Part shown: positions 4,205-61,604 of the stretch, piece after piece
Position numbering within the stretch: the stretch's first letter is position 1
Layout: every line of letters starts with the position of its first letter
Assembly (NCBI GenBank): GCA_002308915.1
Contig: DBWI01000024.1
Location: forward strand, 2,004 to 66,003
DNA length: 64,000 nt
Origin: Christensenella sp. UBA1242
GTDB lineage: Bacteria; Bacillota; Clostridia; Christensenellales; UBA1242
Reading direction: 5' to 3'
Made by a program: the position numbers and the translations under genes
The notes under the pieces: model-generated
Told to the model about the DNA's origin: nothing
Databases searched by the model: none
The model's input: only the letters and a program-made list of their open reading frames with translations

Positions 4205-4446
4205 GTTAAAAGACGATGATAAAAGACTAGTAACTATTCTAATTGCCAACAGAGATGAAAACTCCTGGGCTGAAAGGTTTTCTTGGACAAATTATAGTGA
4301 ATTCACTTTTTAGTCACCAGCTGAAATAGTAGTAGGATTGGTCGGGAAATCCCGTTATAGATTAAATGAGTATGCTTTGCATGAATTTAGGTGGTACCGT
4401 GGCTAAGAGTTAGTCACCCTAAAATTTGCAAAGTTTTTTTATTTTT
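4205..4446 (+). promoter_or_regulatory. T-box leader (tRNA-Phe responsive) with intrinsic terminator, upstream of pheST
   Basis: Near-canonical T-box sequence AATTTAGGTGGTACCGTGG at 4384-4402. AGAGA/GA-motif stem I region around 4250-4275. UUC (Phe) at 4280-4282 in the candidate specifier region. Alternative hairpin GGTG...CACC followed by a T-run at 4434-4446. Possible TTGACT-17-(TGc)TAGTTT promoter at 4169-4197. Confidence 0.85.
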
Positions 4447-5488: not shown

Positions 5489-7885
5489 ATGATAGTAACA
5501 TTAAATTGGTTAAAAGATTTTGTTGATATTGATGTATCACCAGAAAAATTAGCAGAATTACTTACAAATTCTGGAAACGAAGTTGAAGAAATTATTTATC
5601 AAGACAAATATTTAAAAAATGTTGTCGTTGGTAAGATATTAAAAATAGAGCAACATCCAAATGCAGAAAAATTAGTTGTTTGTCAAGTTGATATTGGAAC
5701 AAAAGTTACTCAAATTATTACAGCAGCAAAAAATGTTTTTGAAGGTGCTATTGTTCCTGTTTCACTTGCTGGTGCAAACCTTGCTAACGGAATACACATA
5801 GAAGACTCAAAATTAAGAGGTCTTGACAGCTTTGGAATGTTCTGTTCTATTGAAGAACTTGGAGTAACAGACTATGACGGCGAAAAAGACGGCATAATGA
5901 TTTTGGATAACGACCTTGTTCCTGGAACAGAAATCGCAAAAGCTCTTATGATGGATGATGTTATATTTGATGTTAATGTAACAGCAAACAGACCAGACTG
6001 CATGAGCATTATTGGTATTGCAAGAGAAGTTAGTGCATTAACAGGCAAACCACTTAAAGAACAAAATTTATATTATGAAACAAATAATGAAAATGTTTCT
6101 GATTATGTTTCTGTTGAAGTAGAAAACACAGAGTTATGTCCAAGATATATGGCAACAGCACTCAAAGATGTAAAACTCGAAAAATCACCAAAATGGTTAA
6201 GAGCAAGACTTGTTGCAGTTGGAATTAAGCCAATATGCAATATTGTTGATATAACAAACTATGTTCTTATGGAATATGGTCAACCAATGCATGCTTTTGA
6301 CCACAAATATCTTGGTGGCAAAAAGATTATAGTTAGAAATGCAAAGAAAGGTGAAAGCTTAAAGGTTCTTAACCAAAATACTTATGACCTTGATGAAAAA
6401 ATGCTTTGCATTTGTGATGCCAATGGTCCAAGCGTTATCGCTGGTATTATTGGTGGAACATACAGCTCAATTCAAGAAGACACAAAAACAGTTGTATTTG
6501 AATCTGCTGCTTTTGAAAGAGCAAGCATAAGAAGAACAAGTAGAAGAATTGGTGTAAGAACTGATTCAACTGCAAGATTTGAAAAAGGTGTTGATGTTGG
6601 CTCACCAGAATATGGTATGAAAAGAGCACTTAACCTTGTTTATGAACTCAAAGCAGGAACAATCGTTAGTGGAGTGATTGATACAGTAAAAGAACAACCA
6701 AAAAATAGAGATTTGGAATTTAGTTTGAATAGAATATTTAAATTACTTGGAATAAGAGTAGAAAACGATAAAGTATTAAACATACTCAATAACCTTGGTA
6801 TCAAATCAAAAATTGACGGCGACAAACTTTTCTGCAATGTACCAGTATTTAGAAGTGATATAGAAAATGACGCAGATATTGCAGAAGAAATAATAAGAAT
6901 GTATGGTTATGGTGTTTATGACAGCATAGAAACAGCACCACTTAGCAGTGCATCTGTTACAGTTGGAAAACATGACAAAGTATTATTGCTTGCAAGAAAT
7001 CTAAAATATGAACTTTGTGATTATGGATATTTTGAAGCAGTAAACTTCTCAATTTGCAGTGATGATGTTAAAGACAAACTTCTAATAAACCCAGAAGATA
7101 AAATGTATAACATGATTAAAATAGCAAACCCAATTAGTGAAGATTTGGGATATGTTAGAACAAGTATGGCAAATGGAATGTTCTTAACTGTTGCCAGAAA
7201 CTTAGCAAGAAAAAATAGTGGATTTAAGTTATTTGAAGTTGGTAGAGTATATATTCCAAAATCATTACCACTTACAGAACTTCCAGACGAAATCAATATG
7301 CTTTCTTTGTGCAGTGTTGACCCAAAAGATGATTTCTTTGTATTAAAAGGAATAATGGAAAATCTCTTAAGAGATTTTGAATTTGAATACAAACTTGAAT
7401 ATTCAAAATTACCATATTTGCACCCAGGAATTAGTGCTGATGTAATTGATATTAACACAAATGTAAAAGTAGCTAGTTTCGGTCAAGTGCATCCAAAAGT
7501 ATGCAAGAATTTTGATTTGCCAGAAAAAACTTTCTATGGTGAAGTTAATCTTGATGCACTAGCAGCATTGAAAGAAAAAACTCATAGTGTAAAAGCACTT
7601 TCAAAATTCCCAATTGTTGAAAGAGATTTGGCAATTGTATGTGATGAAAGCTTAACAGTTGATACTATTATTGGTTGCGTAAAGAAGTCTTGTGGCAACT
7701 TATACTATGGCGCAAAAGTATTTGATATTTATAGAAGTGCAGAACTAGGAGAAAACAAAAAGAGTGTTGCATTCAATTTCCAACTCCAAAGTTATGACAA
7801 AACATTAACAGATGACGAAATAAATCAAGTCGTTAAAAAGGTATTAAAAGACCTTCAATACAAAACAGGTGCAGTGCTCAGATGA
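5489..7885 (+). CDS. pheT: phenylalanine--tRNA ligase beta subunit
   Basis: 798 aa with an N-terminal tRNA-binding OB domain (MIVTLNWLKDFVDI...), B3/4 and B5 regions and a C-terminal FDX-ACB-like domain. Immediately follows pheS. Confidence 0.97.
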   Translation: MIVTLNWLKDFVDIDVSPEKLAELLTNSGNEVEEIIYQDKYLKNVVVGKILKIEQHPNAEKLVVCQVDIGTKVTQIITAAKNVFEGAIVPVSLAGANLANGIHIEDSKLRGLDSFGMFCSIEELGVTDYDGEKDGIMILDNDLVPGTEIAKALMMDDVIFDVNVTANRPDCMSIIGIAREVSALTGKPLKEQNLYYETNNENVSDYVSVEVENTELCPRYMATALKDVKLEKSPKWLRARLVAVGIKPICNIVDITNYVLMEYGQPMHAFDHKYLGGKKIIVRNAKKGESLKVLNQNTYDLDEKMLCICDANGPSVIAGIIGGTYSSIQEDTKTVVFESAAFERASIRRTSRRIGVRTDSTARFEKGVDVGSPEYGMKRALNLVYELKAGTIVSGVIDTVKEQPKNRDLEFSLNRIFKLLGIRVENDKVLNILNNLGIKSKIDGDKLFCNVPVFRSDIENDADIAEEIIRMYGYGVYDSIETAPLSSASVTVGKHDKVLLLARNLKYELCDYGYFEAVNFSICSDDVKDKLLINPEDKMYNMIKIANPISEDLGYVRTSMANGMFLTVARNLARKNSGFKLFEVGRVYIPKSLPLTELPDEINMLSLCSVDPKDDFFVLKGIMENLLRDFEFEYKLEYSKLPYLHPGISADVIDINTNVKVASFGQVHPKVCKNFDLPEKTFYGEVNLDALAALKEKTHSVKALSKFPIVERDLAIVCDESLTVDTIIGCVKKSCGNLYYGAKVFDIYRSAELGENKKSVAFNFQLQSYDKTLTDDEINQVVKKVLKDLQYKTGAVLR

Positions 7886-9000
7886 TTTATTTAGATAATG
7901 CTGCAACAACAAAGCCATCAAAGCAGTGCATAGAAACATATAACAAATACACAGAGGAATTTTATAATCCCTCTGGTATTTATATGCCTAGCATTAAAGT
8001 AAAAAACGATATTCAAAGTGCAAGACAAACAATACAAAAAGCTTTGGGAGCAACAACAGGGAATATAATATTCACTTCTTCTGCAACTGAAGCAAATAAT
8101 TTGGCAGTATTCGGCTCAATGCGCTCAAACTTCAAAAAATTTGTCTTTACAATGGCGGACCATCCTTCAACATACAATATTGGAGTTGAACTTAAAAACA
8201 GAGGCTATGATGTTGAATTTTGTCCATTAACACAAGATGGGCAAATAGATTATAATGCACTTGAGCAAATTTTAGATGATAAAACAAGTTTCATATCTGT
8301 TATCCATGTATCAAACGAAACAGGTGCAATAAATGACTTAAAAAGAATAAACGAATTGCGCATAAAGAAATGTCCAAATGCAATATTACATGCAGATGGA
8401 GTTCAAGCGTTTGGAAAAATAAAAATAAACTTAGATTATTTTGGTGTTGACTTGTACACAATAAGTGGACACAAAATGAATTCATTAAAAGGTTGTGCTT
8501 GTTTATATAGTAGAAATATAATATTAAAACCTACAATATATGGTGGTGGACAAGAGGGCAATCTTCGCTCAGGAACAGAAAATGTTGGAGCAATTATGTC
8601 TCTAAAAACTGCAGTAGAAAACATTGGAAACATAAAAGAAAATTATGATTATGTTCAAAATCTTAAAAATGAATTTATAAAAAATATCATTGATTTGCCT
8701 TGCAAAATAAATAGTGATAACAGATGTTCGCCATATATACTAAGTTTAACTTTTAAAGGCGTAAAAGGTGAAACACTTGTTCATATGATGGAACAAAAAG
8801 ATATATATATTAGCACTGGTAGTGCTTGTTCAAGCAGACATACTGGAAACAGAACACTTGAATCAATGAATATTTCACCAAAAGATGTTATTGGCAGTGT
8901 TAGAATTAGTTTTTCGAAAAATAATACGCTTGAGGAAATTAAAGTTGCATCAAAAGAACTAGCTGAAAGCTACAAACAATTGATAAAAAAGTTGAGTTAA
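7882..9000 (+). CDS. cysteine desulfurase (class V aminotransferase, NifS/NifZ-like, paired with thiI)
   Basis: IYLDNAATTKP N-terminus, PLP-lysine motif SGHKMNSLKG, GGGQEGNLRSGTENV, and active-site Cys in STGSACSS. Start overlaps the pheT stop (ATGA). Directly upstream of thiI as in the Bacillus nifZ-thiI pair. Confidence 0.85.
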   Translation: MIYLDNAATTKPSKQCIETYNKYTEEFYNPSGIYMPSIKVKNDIQSARQTIQKALGATTGNIIFTSSATEANNLAVFGSMRSNFKKFVFTMADHPSTYNIGVELKNRGYDVEFCPLTQDGQIDYNALEQILDDKTSFISVIHVSNETGAINDLKRINELRIKKCPNAILHADGVQAFGKIKINLDYFGVDLYTISGHKMNSLKGCACLYSRNIILKPTIYGGGQEGNLRSGTENVGAIMSLKTAVENIGNIKENYDYVQNLKNEFIKNIIDLPCKINSDNRCSPYILSLTFKGVKGETLVHMMEQKDIYISTGSACSSRHTGNRTLESMNISPKDVIGSVRISFSKNNTLEEIKVASKELAESYKQLIKKLS

Positions 9001-11904: not shown

Positions 11905-11980
11905 TGGAGCTACTGGCCGGATTCGAACCGGCGACCCACGCATTACGAATGCGTTGCTCTACCAGCTGAGCCACAATAGC
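11905..11980 (-). tRNA. tRNA-Thr (anticodon CGU), CCA encoded
   Basis: Reverse strand reads GCTATTG-TG-GCTC-AGCTGGTA-GAGC-A-ACGCA-TTCGTAA-TGCGT-GGGTC-GCCGG-TTCGAAT-CCGGC-CAGTAGC-T-CCA. This is a full 76-nt cloverleaf with all four stems pairing; anticodon loop TTCGTAA gives CGT. Confidence 0.93.
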
Positions 11981-33770: not shown

Positions 33771-33825
33771 TTTACTTCTCCTTTGCATAGCCTAATTCCC
33801 TTATAAATAAAGGGGATTAGCGTGT

Positions 33826-33985
33826 TTTGAATATTTATACATTCATAATTATTCAACCACTTTGGAATTATTATACAATATAATTTATAATTATGCAAGC
33901 ACTTTTTGCATAAATATTCACAGCAATTTTTATGATTATAAACAATACTGAAAAATTATAAATCGCCTATTCATAAATATTCACA
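33826..33985. promoter_or_regulatory. cluster of ARG-box-like motifs upstream of argR
   Basis: TGAATATTTATACA (33828-33841) and the adjacent TTCATAATTATTCA (33842-33855). TGCATAAATATTCA (33907-33920) and TTCATAAATATTCA (33970-33983). All approximate TGAAT-W4-ATTCA. Confidence 0.45.
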
Positions 33986-34007
33986 AAATTTATAACACAA
34001 AATTAAC

Positions 34008-34034
34008 AAAAAAAAGACAGGTTTATACCCTGTC
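34008..34034 (-). terminator. intrinsic terminator ending the ncRNA-oapA unit
   Basis: Minus strand: GACAGG-GTATAAA-CCTGTC (the stem overlaps the TAA stop) followed by TTTTTTTT. Confidence 0.8.
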
Positions 34035-34712
34035 CTTATTATTACCCTCACCTGGTTCCATGTTATCATTAGCCAAGTTTTCTTGTCCTAATTCATCTGA
34101 GTTTACATTCTCAATTTGTGAATGCTTTTTGGGTTTGTTTTTGTTTTGTGGAGTAAACCAACTCATCACCTTACCTACTCTTAGAAGTATCTTGTCACAA
34201 TTATCAATAGCATATTTTTTACAAATTGATTTTCCAAAAATTGTAAGACTTGCAACTAGTGCACTAACCAAAGAAGCAACTATTATACTTAAAGCTGAAT
34301 TTGACTGAATGGCTATTTTTATAACAATACTCGCTCCAGCCGAACCAGAAAGAATTCCACAAACATCTCCTATAACATCTGCCGATATTGAAGAAACTTT
34401 GTCTGCGTTGTTGATTAGTCTTATTGCTTCTTTTGCTCCCCTAACCTTTCTTGCAGCCATAGCCCTAAACGGTTCAACATTGGCAGCAGTTGTAGCAACA
34501 CCTATCATATCTGTTATAATTGCTATTGACATAAACACTAAAATTATTATTACCGCTATAACAACTCCTGTCCCCGACAGGAATACTTCACTAAGAATAG
34601 CAAAGCACATAGACAATGCAAATGACAATAACAAAATTTTTAGTGACCATCTAATTTGGCTTGAACTTTGCTTTTTTACTTTTTGCTTATTCGGGTTTGG
34701 TTTCTCTTTCAT
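34023..34712 (-). CDS. oapA: small multi-pass membrane protein, probable OLE-associated protein A
   Basis: 229 aa with about four hydrophobic helices around a conserved-looking core (ITDMIGVATTAANVEPFRAMAARKVRGAKEAIRLI...ADVIGDVCGILSGSAG). Lies immediately downstream of the large structured RNA in the xseB...argR interval where oapA is known to sit. Confidence 0.6.
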   Translation of the reverse strand: MKEKPNPNKQKVKKQSSSQIRWSLKILLLSFALSMCFAILSEVFLSGTGVVIAVIIILVFMSIAIITDMIGVATTAANVEPFRAMAARKVRGAKEAIRLINNADKVSSISADVIGDVCGILSGSAGASIVIKIAIQSNSALSIIVASLVSALVASLTIFGKSICKKYAIDNCDKILLRVGKVMSWFTPQNKNKPKKHSQIENVNSDELGQENLANDNMEPGEGNNKDRV

Positions 34713-34759
34713 ATTATTCCTTTTTATATATAGTATATATTGATTTCATAAATAAAAAA

Positions 34760-35334
34760 ATGAAGGCAACACCTTGAGTAAACCTTGCGACATAGGTTCG
34801 GTAGGATTTCCCCAGTTTTTAACACCCACCGTCACCGTGTGGGCAGTTTCCTTTTAAGTAAAAACATACACCGAATCGCCACTTAGATCACACTATAATC
34901 CCCAAAGTGTCAAACTCTCGTCAACAGTCTAGAAGTTTTCCTTGACAGTTTACTATGCTCTTAGCTTTTTTTGCAGATCTGATTTCATACACAAAGAAAT
35001 ATTCAAAATAGGCCTTTATTTTAAATTTTCCCTTTACCGCGTAATTCCTACAACCCCACTCAAAGCAGGCTACTCTGCACACAGCCGTTTTTTTTTAACC
35101 GCAATGCAGGTTTTTAATCCAACCAGTACAAAATGTATTTGCACCGAATTGGGTCTCCACGATAATTGGGACGGAAGTTATATGCCGTTATAACGCGCCC
35201 AAAAATCTTAACTTCCAGCACACACCCCAGTTTGGGCAACCAAAGCATGCACCAGAAACTTCACAGTTGTGCCCTTCGTTGCTTATTTATCAACTTCCAA
35301 GCAAAATAAACTGACTAGAATACTGCGCCTTCAT
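34760..35334 (-). ncRNA. large structured non-coding RNA, probable OLE (ornate, large, extremophilic) RNA
   Basis: The 661-nt gap has no credible ORF and shows GC-rich islands in an AT-rich genome. A terminal helix AUGAAGGC (35334-35327) / GCCUUCAU (34767-34760) encloses ~575 nt. Internal helices are GGAAGUUA (35216-35209) / UAACUUCC (35180-35173) and CCCAC/GUGGG (34843-34825). Synteny is xseB - RNA - 4-TM protein - argR - recN. RNase P and tmRNA signature motifs are lacking. Confidence 0.6.
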
Positions 35335-35338
35335 AATT

Positions 35339-35367
35339 ATCTTAACACAAAACAAAACATAATACAA
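35339..35367 (-). promoter_or_regulatory. candidate extended -10 promoter for the ncRNA-oapA unit
   Basis: Minus strand: TTGTAT (35367-35362), 17 nt, TGt-TAAGAT (35347-35339). The predicted TSS coincides with the 5' arm of the terminal helix. Confidence 0.45.
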
Positions 35368-37212: not shown

Positions 37213-37581
37213 TTATTCTTCTGTCTTAAAATCAACGCCAACAATATGCACATTTATCTTGCCTACTCTCATTTCTACCATAGATACAATATTGTTTTTG
37301 ATATTCTCTTGTACTTTAAACGCCACATCTGGAACTTTGTTTCCACTATATATTCTTATAAACACATCAATAACAAGTTGACCATTTGAGGCAACTTTTA
37401 ACTTTACACCAGTTGAATCTGCTCTTGTAAAAAATTTTTTAAATTTCATTGCAAAACTATCTTGCATTCTAGAAACACCATTAATCTCTTTAGTTGCTAA
37501 TGATATTATTGAAAGTAAAATATTTCTATCACAAGTTATCTTGCCTTTATTATCTTGCAATTCGTTGTATAATTCTGCCAC
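37213..37581 (-). CDS. Asp23/Gls24-family envelope stress protein (YqhY-like)
   Basis: Asp23 signature (ISLATKEINGV ... VNVHIVGV). Position between spoIIIAH and nusB matches Bacillus yqhY. Confidence 0.85.
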   Translation of the reverse strand: MAELYNELQDNKGKITCDRNILLSIISLATKEINGVSRMQDSFAMKFKKFFTRADSTGVKLKVASNGQLVIDVFIRIYSGNKVPDVAFKVQENIKNNIVSMVEMRVGKINVHIVGVDFKTEE

Positions 37582-49105: not shown

Positions 49106-49411
49106 TTACTCCTTACATAATTTTATTACTTCATCTGCAATGCCCTTGTTTTTTATTCCAACAACTTTGCAATTTGAAATATTAACAATTTTATCAAAGT
49201 CATCTGGTATTAATGTTAAAACTTCACAATTCGTTCTTTTGGCATTATCCTCAACGATTTTGCTTAGGTTTTTTCCTCCATTATCACTTTTGATTACCAA
49301 ATACAACTTTTTATCATAATTCTTTAAATAGTCACTTCCAATTATTAAGTATCCTGCTTTGCGTGCAATATTGATGTAACCTTTAATTTTTTGAATTATT
49401 TCCTTCTGCAA
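49106..49411 (-). CDS. L7Ae-family RNA-binding protein (YlxQ-like)
   Basis: 101 aa with the ARKAGYLIIGSDY motif. Lies between ylxR and infB. Confidence 0.8.
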   Translation of the reverse strand: MQKEIIQKIKGYINIARKAGYLIIGSDYLKNYDKKLYLVIKSDNGGKNLSKIVEDNAKRTNCEVLTLIPDDFDKIVNISNCKVVGIKNKGIADEVIKLCKE

Positions 49412-51446: not shown

Positions 51447-53006
51447 TTATATTTCATTTATTTTTAATAAAACTTTTGCAGTCATCAATGCATCTGCCAA
51501 AGCTCTGTGTGCATTAAAATCACCTAATTCTAATGCATCAACAACATTTGAAAGTTTATATTTTGGAAGATATAACTTTTTTCTAACAAGTTCCAAACAA
51601 TCAACTATTTTATTATCAAATGACAATGCAACTCTTTCTGCTGCAGATTGTATAAACCCAACATCAAAAAGTACATTATAACCAGACAAAATACTTCCTT
51701 CACAGAACTTGTAAAAATCTTGTATAACAACATCACATTTTGGTGCATCTTGAAGCATTTCCTGTGTAATTGATGTAATATCAACAATTTTTTCTTCAAG
51801 TTCTTTTGAAGTATAAACTAGTGTTTGAAATTGTTCAGTGATAACCCCCTTGTCCAATTTTACTGCACCAATTTCTATTATTTCATCAAAACGACTATCT
51901 AGGCCAGTTGTCTCACAATCAAATACAACAAATGTATTATTCATTATAAAATCATTGTATTTTGCAACTGTGTCAAACAAATTGGCTTGTTTATTCTCAA
52001 TATATGGCTTTGGTTTGATGAGTTGATATTTGTCAATATGTACATCATGTTGAATTTCAACTTTTTCATCAACAATAACTTGCGGATTTATTATTTCACA
52101 TAAAGATAAACTTCTTATATACAAAGTAGTATCTCTTTCTGTCTTTTTGATATCCCCAATAACTAATATTTTGTCGCCATCTTTAATTTTCCTAATTTTT
52201 GGCAAATTGGCTTTTGTTGAAAAATATATGGCAGAAATTGATTTAGTATGATCAGTTAAAGTGAATTTATAATAGTAACTAGGCTCTTCGCTGCCTTTCT
52301 TTTTTGATCTTCTTGATATATATGTCTTTTCAACCAAATTTTCAACCTTCCCAGCAAGAATCACAGAAAGCTTGCTTTCCTCTTGGTCAATAATTTGTTC
52401 AGGCATTGGAGTAATCTCTTTACCAAATATCACTTCTGGTTCATAAACCAAATATCTGGCAACATTTTTAGGCTTTGGAATATTTTCATATATTTGTTTT
52501 TCATGATCAACTAAAGCTGACTCATCAATTTGTTTGTTGCTTTGGCATGCCTTTATTGAAAAACTTCCAATAAAATTTCTATCCAATGCCTCAATTAACT
52601 TGAACTTTAAATTATTATTAAAAAAATAATCATATAGTTCTTTTATTAAATATAATACAATTTCAACTTGATCCTCATTAATATTTACCTCAACACTATC
52701 CTGTTTGTAATAAACAAACATAGATGGCAATGTATCCTTAAAGTAATTTAACAAGAATTTTTGAATTAATTCTTTATCTAAATAGCTTTTTTTGAATTTT
52801 ACTTTTACATTGCAACCCACTTGCAGTGTTGATATAACAAAATTTGTTATTTCTTTTTTTTCGTTTGAAGACAATTCAAGATCGTTAGGATGCAAAAAAC
52901 AAACTTCTGCACAAGACAAAAGAGTGTTATAATCTACACCTAACACTCTTAACCTTTCATATTTATTATTAAATTCCTTATTTAATAAATTTAATATTTC
53001 CATCAT
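51447..53006 (-). CDS. PolC-like N-terminal/OB-fold region fused to a DEDDh 3'-5' exonuclease (no PHP or polymerase domains)
   Basis: C-terminal ~170 aa carry Exo I FVVFDCETTGL, Exo II GYNVLFDVGF and Exo III HRALADA. Residues ~205-295 look like the PolC OB domain (VILAGKVENLVEK...YYKFTLTDHTKSISAIYF...IKDGDKILVIGDIKK). Occupies the rseP-[polC]-rimP slot. Confidence 0.65.
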   Translation of the reverse strand: MMEILNLLNKEFNNKYERLRVLGVDYNTLLSCAEVCFLHPNDLELSSNEKKEITNFVISTLQVGCNVKVKFKKSYLDKELIQKFLLNYFKDTLPSMFVYYKQDSVEVNINEDQVEIVLYLIKELYDYFFNNNLKFKLIEALDRNFIGSFSIKACQSNKQIDESALVDHEKQIYENIPKPKNVARYLVYEPEVIFGKEITPMPEQIIDQEESKLSVILAGKVENLVEKTYISRRSKKKGSEEPSYYYKFTLTDHTKSISAIYFSTKANLPKIRKIKDGDKILVIGDIKKTERDTTLYIRSLSLCEIINPQVIVDEKVEIQHDVHIDKYQLIKPKPYIENKQANLFDTVAKYNDFIMNNTFVVFDCETTGLDSRFDEIIEIGAVKLDKGVITEQFQTLVYTSKELEEKIVDITSITQEMLQDAPKCDVVIQDFYKFCEGSILSGYNVLFDVGFIQSAAERVALSFDNKIVDCLELVRKKLYLPKYKLSNVVDALELGDFNAHRALADALMTAKVLLKINEI

Positions 53007-54268
53007 ATACCACTAAAAATTAAATGCACTATATCGGCAACTATAACAAAGCCTAACAAGAATAATAGTCCATAAGTATGGATATAATTTTCAACTTTTC
53101 TTGAAACGACTGGCTTTCTGAATATCCACTCTAGCAAGGTAAATACAGCATGCCCACCATCTAATGCTGGTATTGGTAAAAAGTTAAATACAGCAAGATT
53201 TGAAGCCAATAATGGAAGTAATATAAACAAATTCACAAAGTTTTCTTGTATGCGTGCAGACATTACTGCAATTGTTGATATTGAACCACCCAATTCTTTA
53301 AACGCAATTTGTCCAGTAATTATTTGTCCAAAGCCTTTTAAAACTACCCATGCAAAACCAAATGCAACTTCAAAAGACCTACCAAGTGCTTCAAGAAAAC
53401 TATGTTGATAAGCTGAACAAGAAAATCCGCCAACTAAAACATTTGCTGTTGTTCCATCTTCTTTTGTTTCCACTTCTTCTTTTAATCTAATCACAACATC
53501 AACCATTTTATTATCACGTTTTACTGTTAATGTTATGTCCTTATCTGCACCTTGTTCTCCAAGAAATTGGCTAAAAGTTCCAGAGAAAGCAAAACTAATT
53601 TGTTTGCCATTTACTTTCCAAATAACATCACCTTCTTGAAGTTCCCCATAATATGCAGCATAATCTGGATTTAGTTGTGATACTTTTGGAATATCGTATC
53701 CAAACCCTAGCAACAATATAAAAGAAAACAAAATAGCACTCAAAAAGTTAAATGTAACTCCTGCAGCGTATACCAAAAGCCTTTTCCATGGCTTTTGTTC
53801 ATTAAACAACAAATAATCTCTTTCTTTTTTGTTTTCAATTATTTCCTTGTTTGGTATTTCTTTTATTTCATCAATAATCTCTGATGCTTTTTCACTCACT
53901 TTGAGTTCTTTGTTTTCATCTGCATTTGAAGAGTCGATTTGAACTTCTGCTTCATTATTTATTTCATTGTTATCTGAAGTTTTTTCATCTTTATTCTCGT
54001 CTACGTCTTCTTCATCTTCTTCACCAGCAAATGCACAATAACCACCTAAAGGAAAAATACGAAGTGAAATTAACTCACCTCGTTTGTTCTTATGTTGAAT
54101 TATTGCTTTTCCAAAACCAACGGAAAATTCATTGATTTTGAAACCAAGCCATCTTCCTATAATGTAATGTCCAAATTCATGAATCAATACCATTAAAAGA
54201 AGAATAACAATAGCAAGAACTACATACATAATAGTAGAAAAAATACCTGCACAAATTAAACTCATCAA
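53003..54268 (-). CDS. rseP: RIP metalloprotease RseP/RasP (M50, PDZ-containing)
   Basis: HEFGHYIIGRWLG, GGYCAFAGE, a PDZ-like segment (GDVIWKVNG) and FNFLPIPALDGGH. Confidence 0.92.
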   Translation of the reverse strand: MMSLICAGIFSTIMYVVLAIVILLLMVLIHEFGHYIIGRWLGFKINEFSVGFGKAIIQHKNKRGELISLRIFPLGGYCAFAGEEDEEDVDENKDEKTSDNNEINNEAEVQIDSSNADENKELKVSEKASEIIDEIKEIPNKEIIENKKERDYLLFNEQKPWKRLLVYAAGVTFNFLSAILFSFILLLGFGYDIPKVSQLNPDYAAYYGELQEGDVIWKVNGKQISFAFSGTFSQFLGEQGADKDITLTVKRDNKMVDVVIRLKEEVETKEDGTTANVLVGGFSCSAYQHSFLEALGRSFEVAFGFAWVVLKGFGQIITGQIAFKELGGSISTIAVMSARIQENFVNLFILLPLLASNLAVFNFLPIPALDGGHAVFTLLEWIFRKPVVSRKVENYIHTYGLLFLLGFVIVADIVHLIFSGI

Positions 54269-54274
54269 ATTCTC

Positions 54275-55222
54275 CTATAATACAATAATTAAGAATAGCA
54301 TTACAACAAGTATACTTAACAAATGGCTATCCATTCTATCCAATATACCACCATGTCCTGGCAAAAGAGTTCCTGAATCTTTTACATTTGCTTTACGCTT
54401 TAACCAACTTTCAAAAAGGTCACCAAGTTGACACAAAATACTAGCAACAGCACCAACTATAATCAACTGCCAGAAATGAAGCCCAACACTTGCAAAAGTA
54501 GCAGAATATTCTGGTATAGCATCAAAAATCAAGAACAAAGCAACTGCACTTATTGTTCCCCAGACAAAACCTCCTATTGCTCCAGAGATTGTCTTGTTTG
54601 GACTAATCTTTGGACAAAGTTTTGGCCCTTTAAATAACATTCCTGTTAAGTATGCGAATGTATCTGTGAAAATTGGCATACAAAATGCTAATATTAAAGC
54701 AAAAGTTGCAATCATAGTTAAGCTATTTGCAGAATTATTAAATAAATATTGCAAGCCATTTAATTGATTAACAAATACAAATAATAACATCAAAAGTGCT
54801 GGATATAAATCGATTAACATTGTTTGAATAGATTTGTATATTGAAAAAGTTTCTACTTTTAATTTCAAATTTCTTGTTTGAATTTCATTTTGAGTCTTTT
54901 TGTAAGTAATAAGGCAATAAAACCATTGTGCCATAACAAAAACAATTATTAATGACAATTGAACTAAAACAAGAAGATACCACTTCATGTTTACATTAAT
55001 CCCCAAAATATAAAATCCATAAGCAAATACTGGATAAACAACAGCAAAATATAAATTATTGTATAAACCCATCTTTGCCATAAGTTTACTCATTTCATAG
55101 CAACCAATAACTGCTAAAACCAAAATAAATGCATCAAAAATATATGGTGTTAACTGTCTTGAAATAAGAGCTAATACCAATGCTGCAATCATTGTGATGC
55201 CTGTAAAAAATCTTTGTTTCAT
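54275..55222 (-). CDS. cdsA: phosphatidate cytidylyltransferase
   Basis: C-terminal signature SWLKRKANVKDSGTLLPGHGGILDRMDS. Polytopic membrane protein. Confidence 0.92.
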   Translation of the reverse strand: MKQRFFTGITMIAALVLALISRQLTPYIFDAFILVLAVIGCYEMSKLMAKMGLYNNLYFAVVYPVFAYGFYILGINVNMKWYLLVLVQLSLIIVFVMAQWFYCLITYKKTQNEIQTRNLKLKVETFSIYKSIQTMLIDLYPALLMLLFVFVNQLNGLQYLFNNSANSLTMIATFALILAFCMPIFTDTFAYLTGMLFKGPKLCPKISPNKTISGAIGGFVWGTISAVALFLIFDAIPEYSATFASVGLHFWQLIIVGAVASILCQLGDLFESWLKRKANVKDSGTLLPGHGGILDRMDSHLLSILVVMLFLIIVL

Positions 55223-55938
55223 TATTTTTTCTCCTGTTTTATGCTTCCAAAACGTCTTTCTCGTTTTTGGTAATTAATTATTGCCCTAATTAAAGCTTTT
55301 TTATCAAAATCAGGCCAATAAATTTTAGGAAAATATAGTTCACTATATGCCCCTTGTAATAACATGAAATTACTCAATCTTTGTTCTCCACTTGTCCTGA
55401 TTATCAAATCTGGATCTGGCAAATCAAAGGTATAAAGTTCTTTCATTAGTTCTTGTTCAGTAATACTCTTTGCACCTTTATTAATAAGAGAATTATAAGC
55501 TCTAACAACTTCTGCTCTTGAACCATAATTTAATCCTATATTGATAATAATGCTATTATTATTTTGGGTTTTTTCGATTATATCTATTAACTTTTTATAT
55601 AAAGAACTTGGAAGTTTTGATATGTCACCCATAGTTCTTATTTTAATATTACTGGACATTAATTGTTCATAGTTTGTATCAATATAGTTTTCAATTAAGT
55701 CAAATATTCCGTCAACTTCTTCTTTGCTCCTATTCCAATTTTCTGTTGAAAAAGCAAAAAAAGACATAACTTTAACACCAAGCTCTTTAGCAGCATCAAC
55801 AACTCTTTTTAAAGCATTGACGCCAGCCTTGTGGCCTGCAAGTCTGGGCAATAATCTCTTCTTTGCCCATCTGCCATTCCCATCCATTATTATTGCAATG
55901 TGAACTGGAATATTATTTGAATCTATTTTTTTGAACAT
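55222..55938 (-). CDS. uppS: undecaprenyl diphosphate synthase (isoprenyl transferase)
   Basis: HIAIIMDGNGRWAK, FSTENWNR and IRTSGEQRLSNF motifs. ATG 55938 is preferred over the TTG at 55941. Confidence 0.95.
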   Translation of the reverse strand: MFKKIDSNNIPVHIAIIMDGNGRWAKKRLLPRLAGHKAGVNALKRVVDAAKELGVKVMSFFAFSTENWNRSKEEVDGIFDLIENYIDTNYEQLMSSNIKIRTMGDISKLPSSLYKKLIDIIEKTQNNNSIIINIGLNYGSRAEVVRAYNSLINKGAKSITEQELMKELYTFDLPDPDLIIRTSGEQRLSNFMLLQGAYSELYFPKIYWPDFDKKALIRAIINYQKRERRFGSIKQEKK

Positions 55939-55942
55939 CAAG

Positions 55943-56134
55943 TCAATCCTTTAAATTAAATATAAATTCCCCTGTTGTTAAGATAACTGAATTATCTTGT
56001 AACACTTTTACATTTGTAACCAAAACAGTATCACCATTGACATTATGATTATTGCTTACTACAGTATACTTTATATTTTTGCTTTCAAGTTCTTTTTGGC
56101 AATCTGTCAACGTTCTACCGATTAAATGTTCCAT
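55943..56134 (-). CDS. small hypothetical protein, PASTA-like by eye
   Basis: 63 aa. Its start ATG overlaps the frr stop (TAATG), and its stop lies 4 nt before the uppS ATG, so it appears translationally coupled. IGRTLTDCQKELESKNIKYTVV...GDTVLVTNV...VILTTG resembles a single PASTA repeat. Confidence 0.4.
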   Translation of the reverse strand: MEHLIGRTLTDCQKELESKNIKYTVVSNNHNVNGDTVLVTNVKVLQDNSVILTTGEFIFNLKD

Positions 56135-56706
56135 TAGATTTCCATCACTTCTTTTTCTTTGTCGGCACTTTCTTTGTCACAAAGGGAAATATATTTATCT
56201 TGAAGCTTTTGAACTTCATCTTCAAGTCCTGAATATTCATCTTCACTTATTTCAGAATCTTTTTTCATCTGCTTAAACATATCAAGACAATCACGTCTTG
56301 CATTTCTCATAACAACTTTTGTTTCCTCAGCAAGTTTTTTAACTTGTTTAACAATTTCTCTTCTGCGTTCTTCTGTTAAAGCTGGGAAAATTAATCTGAT
56401 AATTTTTCCATCATCAGTTGGTTGCACTCCAAGGTCAGCAGCTTGAATTGCCTTTGAAACATTTTTAAGTTGACTTTGATCCCACACATTTATCGCAAGA
56501 ACTCTTGCTTCTTGAACATTTATGTTTGCCATTTGATTTATTGGAGTTGGCACACCATAATATTCAACAACAACTTTATCCAAAATATGTGGATTTGCTC
56601 TTCCTGCCCTTATAATTTGATACTCAGAAATAAGGTGGTCAAGTGCTTTAGTTAAGTCTTCTTCATATTCCAACTTAACCTCATTTACCATTTCTTCGTC
56701 TTGCAT
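56134..56706 (-). CDS. frr: ribosome recycling factor
   Basis: 190 aa with IRAGRANPHILDKVVVEYYG and LTEERRREIVK motifs. Confidence 0.96.
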   Translation of the reverse strand: MQDEEMVNEVKLEYEEDLTKALDHLISEYQIIRAGRANPHILDKVVVEYYGVPTPINQMANINVQEARVLAINVWDQSQLKNVSKAIQAADLGVQPTDDGKIIRLIFPALTEERRREIVKQVKKLAEETKVVMRNARRDCLDMFKQMKKDSEISEDEYSGLEDEVQKLQDKYISLCDKESADKEKEVMEI

Positions 56707-61253: not shown

Positions 61254-61604
61254 CTAAACTCTAACACCAACAACATGAATGTTAACAGTATCAACAATCA
61301 TGCCAGTAAAATCTTCAACACTGTATTTGATAGTCTTTTTTAAACTTTCTGCAACAGCGCTCACTGAAATACCGTATTTTAAGATACAGTAAATGTCGAT
61401 GAATATTCTATTTTCTATATTTGATATTTTAATTCCTTTGGAATATGGTTGTTTAATTAAAAGTTCACGAATACCATCTTTGAGGTTTCTTGAAACAAGA
61501 TCAACAACACCATAAGAATCTAAGGTGGTAAAACCAGCGACAGCAGCAATAGCGTCGTTAGAAATTGTTATTTTGCCATAGAAATTATTTGTTTCTACTG
61601 CCAT
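61254..61604 (-). CDS. Asp23/Gls24-family protein (YloU-like)
   Basis: Asp23 signature (ISNDAIAAVAG ... VNIHVVGVRV). Paired with yloV. Confidence 0.88.
   Translation of the reverse strand: MAVETNNFYGKITISNDAIAAVAGFTTLDSYGVVDLVSRNLKDGIRELLIKQPYSKGIKISNIENRIFIDIYCILKYGISVSAVAESLKKTIKYSVEDFTGMIVDTVNIHVVGVRV

Follow-up and report, generated by a model that had tools for sequence, protein, structure and literature searches.

The window analysed here is a 64,000-nucleotide (nt) stretch of contig DBWI01000024.1 from Christensenella sp. UBA1242, and the element in question lies between xseB and argR on its minus strand. The stop codon of xseB (35374) and the start codon of the next gene (34712) are separated by an interval of exactly 661 nt. 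A preliminary description had taken this interval and the protein of 229 amino acids (aa) encoded behind it for a probable unit of OLE (ornate, large, extremophilic) RNA and the membrane protein OapA. When the whole window was scanned with Rfam 15, one very strong match to RF01071 (OLE) was found at 35347-34747 on the minus strand. This match scored 386.5 bits (E 5e-110), where the gathering score is 50, and covered model positions 1-616 of 616 without truncation (cmscan). The covariance model and the OapA-family gene directly downstream thus both bear out the proposed OLE-oapA unit. We put the probability that the locus encodes an OLE RNA together with its obligate membrane partner OapA at roughly 0.96. 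The unit comprises the following features:

34747..35347, minus strand: OLE RNA gene, with limits set by the RF01071 model
35327..35334, minus strand: 5′ arm of the P1 closing helix, AUGAAGGC, which pairs with 34767-34760 over 8 bp
34760..34767, minus strand: 3′ arm of the P1 closing helix, GCCUUCAU, which pairs with 35334-35327 and is followed by U7 (34759-34753)
34867..34869, minus strand: junction replacing the P13 hairpin, where GUA links the 5′ arm of P12.2 (UUCGGU, 34875-34870) to P14 (34866-34858)
34825..34843, minus strand: P14.1 hairpin (CCCAC..GUGA..GUGGG) capped by a GNRA tetraloop and aligned to an RF01071 consensus hairpin
35339..35367, minus strand: candidate sigma-A-type promoter with a -35 element TTGTAT (35367-35362), a 17-nt spacer and an extended -10 element TGtTAAGAT; its TG (35347-35346) and -10 hexamer (35344-35339) were read from the sequence
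34023..34712, minus strand: oapA, 229 aa, with a ribosome-binding site AAGGA (34722-34718) and a start codon 34 nt past the end of the OLE model
34013..34037, minus strand: intrinsic terminator ending the ole-oapA unit, with a 9-bp stem (four G-C pairs), a 7-nt loop and T8; it overlaps the oapA stop codon

The OLE RNA and its helices

The locus was compared with 82 loci (given here as L numbers), of which 80 came from species-representative genomes via homologue alignment and two were contigs with an identical protein. The window OLE sequence recurs identically in two independent metagenome contigs (L001 and L002), and eight related loci scored 344-547 bits with the RF01071 model. The nearest loci are metagenome-assembled genomes from the gut labelled Clostridia. 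The host itself fits the anaerobic or extremophilic Bacillota, as the sporulation genes spoIVB, spoIIIA, spoVA and ytfJ are found in the window. In the cmscan alignment, nearly all conserved blocks of the OLE family are kept in the window RNA: GCAGUAUUCUAGUCA, GCCCA, GGCAU, CGUGGAGA, AACCUGC, GUAGCCUGC, CUGCAAAA and GGAAAAC, as well as CUAGACUGU, CUAAGUGG, GGGAAAUCCUAC and UUUAC, were all found with posterior '*'. The GC content is 0.40 in the RNA and 0.38 in the interval, compared to 0.30 in the whole window and 0.23 in the spacer after oapA, so that the GC-rich character described earlier against AT-rich surroundings holds. Three open reading frames (ORFs; 53, 59 and 83 aa) are present in the interval and none is retained as an ORF in the nearest relatives. 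Their tblastn matches mirror nucleotide conservation only, and the frame is broken in L005 and L006. The interval was therefore rightly described as having no credible ORF.

The P1 helix of OLE, named in previous work (PMC3413148), is unannotated in Rfam. We found its pairing in a fixed register in every relative that could be anchored, and compensatory changes in the same register were observed in more than 20 loci. The two arms read GAAGGU/ACCUUC in L003-L005, UAAAGAC/GUCUUUA in L009, CGAAGGC/GCCUUCG in L014, AGAGUGGC/GCCACUCU in L036 and UAGAGGC/GCCUCUA in L052. The U-rich tail also belongs to the Rfam OLE consensus. The actual ends of the RNA are probably at ~35334, the 5′ arm of P1, and ~34755, in the U-tract past its 3′ arm.

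Three complementary pairs had been proposed from the sequence beforehand. The coordinates were correct for all of them, and two of the helices, P1 and P14.1, are part of the RNA. The nomenclature of P14.1 follows PMC7936274, in which the equivalent hairpin of Halalkalibacterium halodurans is a weak secondary OapB site. The third helix, GGAAGUUA/UAACUUCC (35216-35209 with 35180-35173), was rejected, as it conflicts with the OLE consensus and is not conserved. In the Rfam structure, GGAAG closes a long hairpin further upstream and AUAAC forms the 3′ arm of a small hairpin with a GGCAU loop, and in L003 and L007 the complementarity is gone. A simple calculation gives about three perfect complements of 8 nt per 600 nt as the chance expectation.

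OapA and the gene order of the locus

A search with the 229-aa protein gave 530 homologues at E<1e-5, and no dedicated Pfam or NCBIfam model exists among its matches. The best domain match, CNNM/DUF21 (PF01595), is below threshold (E 3.6e-4; 20.7 bits versus a cut-off of 28.4). The OapA of L036, which stands in the canonical context xseB-ispA-OLE-oapA-dxs and is 41% identical to the window OapA (E 5e-41), gives an equally weak CNNM match (E ~4e-4). OapA has been reported to be "weakly homologous" to the CNNM domain of MpfA (PMC11332333). Four hydrophobic helices are evident from Kyte-Doolittle peaks at residues 26-44, 48-66, 113-135 and 141-159. AlphaFold2, run on an alignment of database proteins only, likewise predicted helices at 17-47, 50-76, 103-136 and 140-170 (mean predicted local distance difference test score 72; means of 78-89 for blocks of 10 residues within 21-180). 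Helices 2 and 3 are joined by a basic loop (residues 74-108) containing EPFRAMAARKVRGAKEAIR with seven K/R. An alignment of 24 sequences shows no variation at K89, G92 and K94 and very little at R91 (conserved in at least 90%); with 77 sequences, G92 remains invariant, with K89, R91 and K94 nearly so. The motif D112/G115/D116/C118/G119 is invariant among homologues. A cluster of positive charges on the cytoplasmic face has been described for the published OapA (PMC12265935). The C-terminal 40 residues are of low complexity and predicted to be disordered.

Because the OapA sequence profile drew no match in the PDB, a fold search was needed. The six best Foldseek matches in the PDB are all CorB or CorC proteins, namely MtCorB (7m1t, 7m1u) and the CorC transmembrane domain (7cff, 7cfg), with a probability of 0.99-1.00, a query-normalised template modelling (TM) score of 0.41-0.46 and a root-mean-square deviation of 3.5 Å over 137 columns. 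This match of the predicted structure is modest but specific. The CNNM/DUF21 domain of MpfA, CorB and CorC has four helices, a basic cytoplasmic loop and a fold similar to that predicted for the window OapA. However, the latter differs from these Mg2+ transporters in that it has neither the CBS pair nor the CorC_HlyC domain; no CBS, CorC_HlyC or other domain was detected in its 229 aa. The four helices, the basic loop, the weak CNNM-like match and the membership in an OLE-adjacent family agree with the earlier view of the protein as an OapA with about four transmembrane segments.

When the window RNA was used as nhmmer query, OLE was found directly upstream of the OapA homologue and on the same strand in 79 of the 82 loci. 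Two of the three exceptions are cut by the contig end. The third is L012, where the OapA homologue (5545-6153) is followed by argR-recN and preceded, at a distance of 116 nt, by a TatD-like gene; nhmmer without filters did not find an OLE there either. The assignment of the window protein as OapA is settled by this defining genomic association with OLE. In L059, OLE (1606-2176) and oapA (8001-8534) are three genes, or ~5.8 kb, apart, and the statement that OLE is always followed by oapA has to be given up.

The gene order in the window, all on the minus strand, is asp23-nusB-xseA-xseB-OLE-oapA-argR-recN-spoIVB. Two Asp23-family genes are present in the window (37213-37581 and 61254-61604, both minus strand), one of them immediately before nusB, where most related OLE loci also have one. 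In Oscillospiraceae and Clostridiaceae the order is xseB-ispA-OLE-oapA-dxs-tlyA-nadK-argR-recN, as determined with Pfam on L036 and by BLAST with the L036 proteins elsewhere. No trace of ispA, dxs, tlyA or nadK was found in the whole window by tblastn with the L036 queries (E<=1e-3). The compact order xseB-OLE-oapA-argR was also found in L003, L004, L005, L006, L009, L013 and L014, whose OapA is 50-67% identical to that of the window; 67% is the best identity among the GTDB representatives fetched. Since at least seven divergent relatives have the same arrangement, the compact order is a shared trait within a clade of uncultured Clostridia from the gut. Thus, ispA and dxs are indeed missing at the locus, as stated in the preliminary description, whereas the idea that this is peculiar to the locus does not hold.

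Transcription signals and the missing P13 hairpin

The candidate OLE promoter of the window scored 8 of 12 and was not listed by our scanner, which has a cut-off of 9 of 12. Strong TTGnnn-17-TGnTATAAT promoters are present at the equivalent position in L003-L006, L009, L013 and L014. Moreover, a TTGnnn-17-TGnTAnnnT-like promoter precedes P1 in most of 59 loci, including those flanked by ispA; our crude scorer passed 37 of these 59, and more are visible by eye. In H. halodurans, the proximal promoter raises expression more than 100-fold, and transcription from it starts where the 5′ ends were mapped at P1 (PMC3413148). By analogy, we infer that the window element functions as a promoter. An own promoter had been regarded as a departure from the usual arrangement. 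The element is there and its position is conserved in relatives, but an own promoter is the rule and does not distinguish this locus, because it has been shown in H. halodurans and is seen in most of the loci examined.

The clean terminator reported after oapA was recovered at 34037-34013 with its 9-bp stem and T8. Elements consisting of a hairpin and a T-run follow oapA in the relatives of the clade as well. A terminator after oapA distinguishes the compact clade from loci in which dxs lies at most ~25 nt past oapA. No terminator was found at the xseB-OLE junction, and read-through from upstream is therefore likely. Read-through from upstream has also been reported for OLE of H. halodurans (PMC12265935).

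The preliminary description had overlooked that the window OLE has no P13 hairpin. The cmscan alignment bypasses 19 consensus positions and has one residue instead. P13 is absent likewise in L003 and L007; L036 and L031 retain it as a hairpin with a bulge and a GGUGAC or GGUAAC loop. Across loci, the spacing in the P12.2-P14 region falls into two classes of ~28 nt and ~45 nt. This spacing was measured by regular expression, of which a looser pattern still missed 28 loci, so the absence of P13 is read mainly from the cmscan alignments of five sequences together with the two spacing classes. The P13-less architecture is kept in at least ten divergent loci with OapA only 50-67% identical.

In H. 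halodurans, the GNRA loop and a bulged nucleotide of P13 form the primary OapB-binding site (PMC7936274). Fernando and Breaker (2024) described 'variant 1' OLE RNAs, which are often without the OapB-binding site, have shortened P7-P9 and were proposed to work without OapB. They belong to reduced-genome gut clades and are commonest in TANB77, an uncultured clade from the gut in which OapB and OapC are mostly missing (PMC11332333). Because P13 is missing, we file the window RNA under this published P13-less variant, and it fits the variant 1 description. Shared with variant 1 are the occurrence in uncultured gut Clostridia, the missing P13 and the short RNA (568-601 nt, compared to 606-687 nt in the fetched Oscillospiraceae and Clostridiaceae loci). 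On the other hand, only one stem of P7-P9 is clearly shorter in the window, judged against the Rfam consensus, and variant 1 is centred on TANB77, whereas the window lineage is not established as TANB77. Among the related loci, L014 (Ca. Caccopulliclostridium) has been assigned to order 4C28d-15, family UBA1242 (PMC8035907).

The window was also searched for the other protein partners. The kink-turn next to P5, whose position is defined in H. halodurans numbering, is the OapC-binding site of OLE (PMC9723947). No family match to OapB (YbzG; KOW motif) or OapC/YbxF (L7Ae-like) was obtained among the ten small window proteins scanned. An ORF of 101 aa between ylxR and infB (49106-49411, minus strand) sits where YlxQ, an L7Ae-family paralogue of OapC, would be. 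Pfam gave no match for it and the PDB none to L7Ae proteins, and a YlxQ/OapC-like identity is unsupported by these searches.

Compared to full-length OLE RNAs (H. halodurans, Clostridium botulinum), the window RNA has in common the match to the full model, the conserved blocks and P1. The loci share the proximal promoter, oapA as the next gene, the frame nusB-xseA-xseB ... argR-recN-spoIVB and a host that is a spore-forming anaerobe of the Bacillota. In contrast, the window RNA has no P13 and one of its hairpins is 8 nt shorter than in the consensus. Its locus is without the upstream ispA and the downstream dxs, tlyA and nadK, and has a terminator directly after oapA.

Alternative readings and meaning of the locus

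Several points weigh against an OLE-OapA unit as described here. The RNA of this organism is known here from its sequence. All close relatives have a stronger -10 hexamer than TAAGAT. The OapA sequence profile gave no PDB match at E<=1, and the CorB/CorC fold match is modest (Foldseek E 5e-3, query-normalised TM score 0.46). The search for OapB and OapC was confined to this 64-kb window. Finally, the mechanism amounts to membrane tethering and a stress phenotype, and nothing more precise.

The most probable of the alternatives is that the region only serves the oapA mRNA as a long cis-acting leader and does not give rise to a stable RNA in its own right. Only 34 nt lie between the RNA and the start of oapA, there is no evident promoter for oapA alone and a single terminator closes both, which means that oapA must be translated from OLE-carrying transcripts. 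However, OLE of H. halodurans accumulates as one band of high stability and works together with OapA in a ribonucleoprotein (RNP; PMC3413148, PMC12265935), P1 and the U-tract set a distinct 3′ end both in this RNA and in the Rfam consensus, and OLE lies 5.8 kb from oapA in L059. We consider a cis-acting leader very improbable. Even less probable is that this OLE copy is a relic, decaying in a reduced genome, and has lost P13 through erosion. The full-length 386-bit match with nearly all conserved blocks intact, the covariation of P1 and an intact oapA with every family-invariant residue present all speak for a maintained element, and the P13-less form is stable in at least ten loci whose OapA has diverged to 50-67% identity. 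Such erosion would be in line with the missing P13, the -10 hexamer weaker than that of relatives and the reduced genomes published for such gut lineages (PMC11332333). That the interval is a decayed coding sequence, such as a remnant of ispA, whose canonical position is indeed between xseB and OLE, has practically no chance of being correct: tblastn with ispA, dxs, tlyA and nadK of L036 was blank in the whole window, the xseB stop lies 26 nt before the start of the OLE model and leaves no room, and the RNA model accounts for the full interval. Remnants of ispA or dxs had been named earlier as what would speak against OLE; none was found by tblastn in the window, and this blank result and the RF01071 match together refute the remnant reading.

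For the OLE-OapA unit, a mechanism can be proposed that starts from what was observed here, namely the OLE family membership, the covariation of P1, the OapA family and predicted fold, the conserved promoter position and the terminator. Its inferred steps draw on the sequence and on the work in H. halodurans and C. botulinum. Transcription would start at the proximal extended -10 promoter, a few nt before P1, and read-through from nusB-xseA-xseB would add to it. The product would be an abundant and stable RNA of ~580 nt delimited by P1 and the U-tract. A fraction of the transcripts would pass this end, cross the 34 nt to the promoterless oapA and stop at 34037-34013. It has previously been shown that OapA binds OLE RNA and localises it to the membrane (PMC12265935). 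By analogy, the basic loop EPFRAMAARKVRGAKEAIR of the window OapA may bind the RNA and keep it at or in the membrane. OLE of H. halodurans has its own promoter, high stability and alcohol and cold phenotypes (PMC3413148), and with its OLE particle this species copes better with stress from alcohol, cold, excess Mg2+ and poor carbon sources (PMC3413148, PMC10898510). As in H. halodurans, the OLE RNP of this organism may aid survival under stress. Since P13 has been lost, the complex would be independent of OapB, and the P13-less copy probably works without it, as proposed for variant 1.

Further features were seen elsewhere in the window. Between the oapA terminator and argR (33789-34012, minus strand), three exact ARG-box-like sites, TGAATAWWTATKMA, are present at 33842-33855, 33907-33920 and 33970-33983; a fourth, at 33828-33841, has one mismatch. 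These sites bracket a TTGCAT-17-TATAAT promoter. This region holds six of the seven ARG-box-like matches of the whole window, and the block is conserved in L003-L006, L009, L013 and L014, which suggests that argR-recN may be a separate ArgR-autoregulated unit. A conserved hairpin, CCCCTTTATTTATAAGGG with complementary flanks, lies just before the argR start codon (33792-33820); it is found in most relatives of the clade and was flagged by the scanner as terminator-like on the plus strand. Upstream of rimP-nusA-ylxR-infB-rbfA, a 519-aa protein is encoded (51447-53006, minus strand) whose only Pfam matches are overlapping exonuclease families at residues 360-514 (RNase_T/DnaQ-type, weakly Rv2179c-like). 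In B. subtilis this position is occupied by polC. A T-box leader (4207-4424, plus strand; 102.6 bits) is located directly upstream of pheS-pheT, and a tRNA gene at 11908-11980 (minus strand; 68.7 bits).

Rfam curates OLE as a family and catalogues thousands of members, and the form without P13 has been on record from uncultured gut bacteria since 2024. The locus is therefore an ordinary representative of this family, in a shortened variant that was known from such bacteria before. The main value of the analysis is correct annotation. As a clean, compact ole-oapA example, the locus could help to compare which parts of the RNP are dispensable; it opens no new question.

The genes frr, a 63-aa ORF, uppS, cdsA and rseP are located at 53003-56706 (minus strand). 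Here cdsA abuts rseP with no dxr between them, the place where dxr lies in B. subtilis. With ispA and dxs also absent, both usual positions for genes of the methylerythritol phosphate (MEP) pathway are empty in the window. It is possible, and we suggest it tentatively as the less probable outcome, that the OLE RNP is here a self-contained module of RNA and OapA with its own promoter and terminator, without the P13/OapB dock and uncoupled from isoprenoid genes, in a genome that may be without the MEP pathway. If this is true, the locus would be a natural minimal OLE system, and it would argue that the long-noted linkage of OLE to isoprenoid genes is dispensable for its function.

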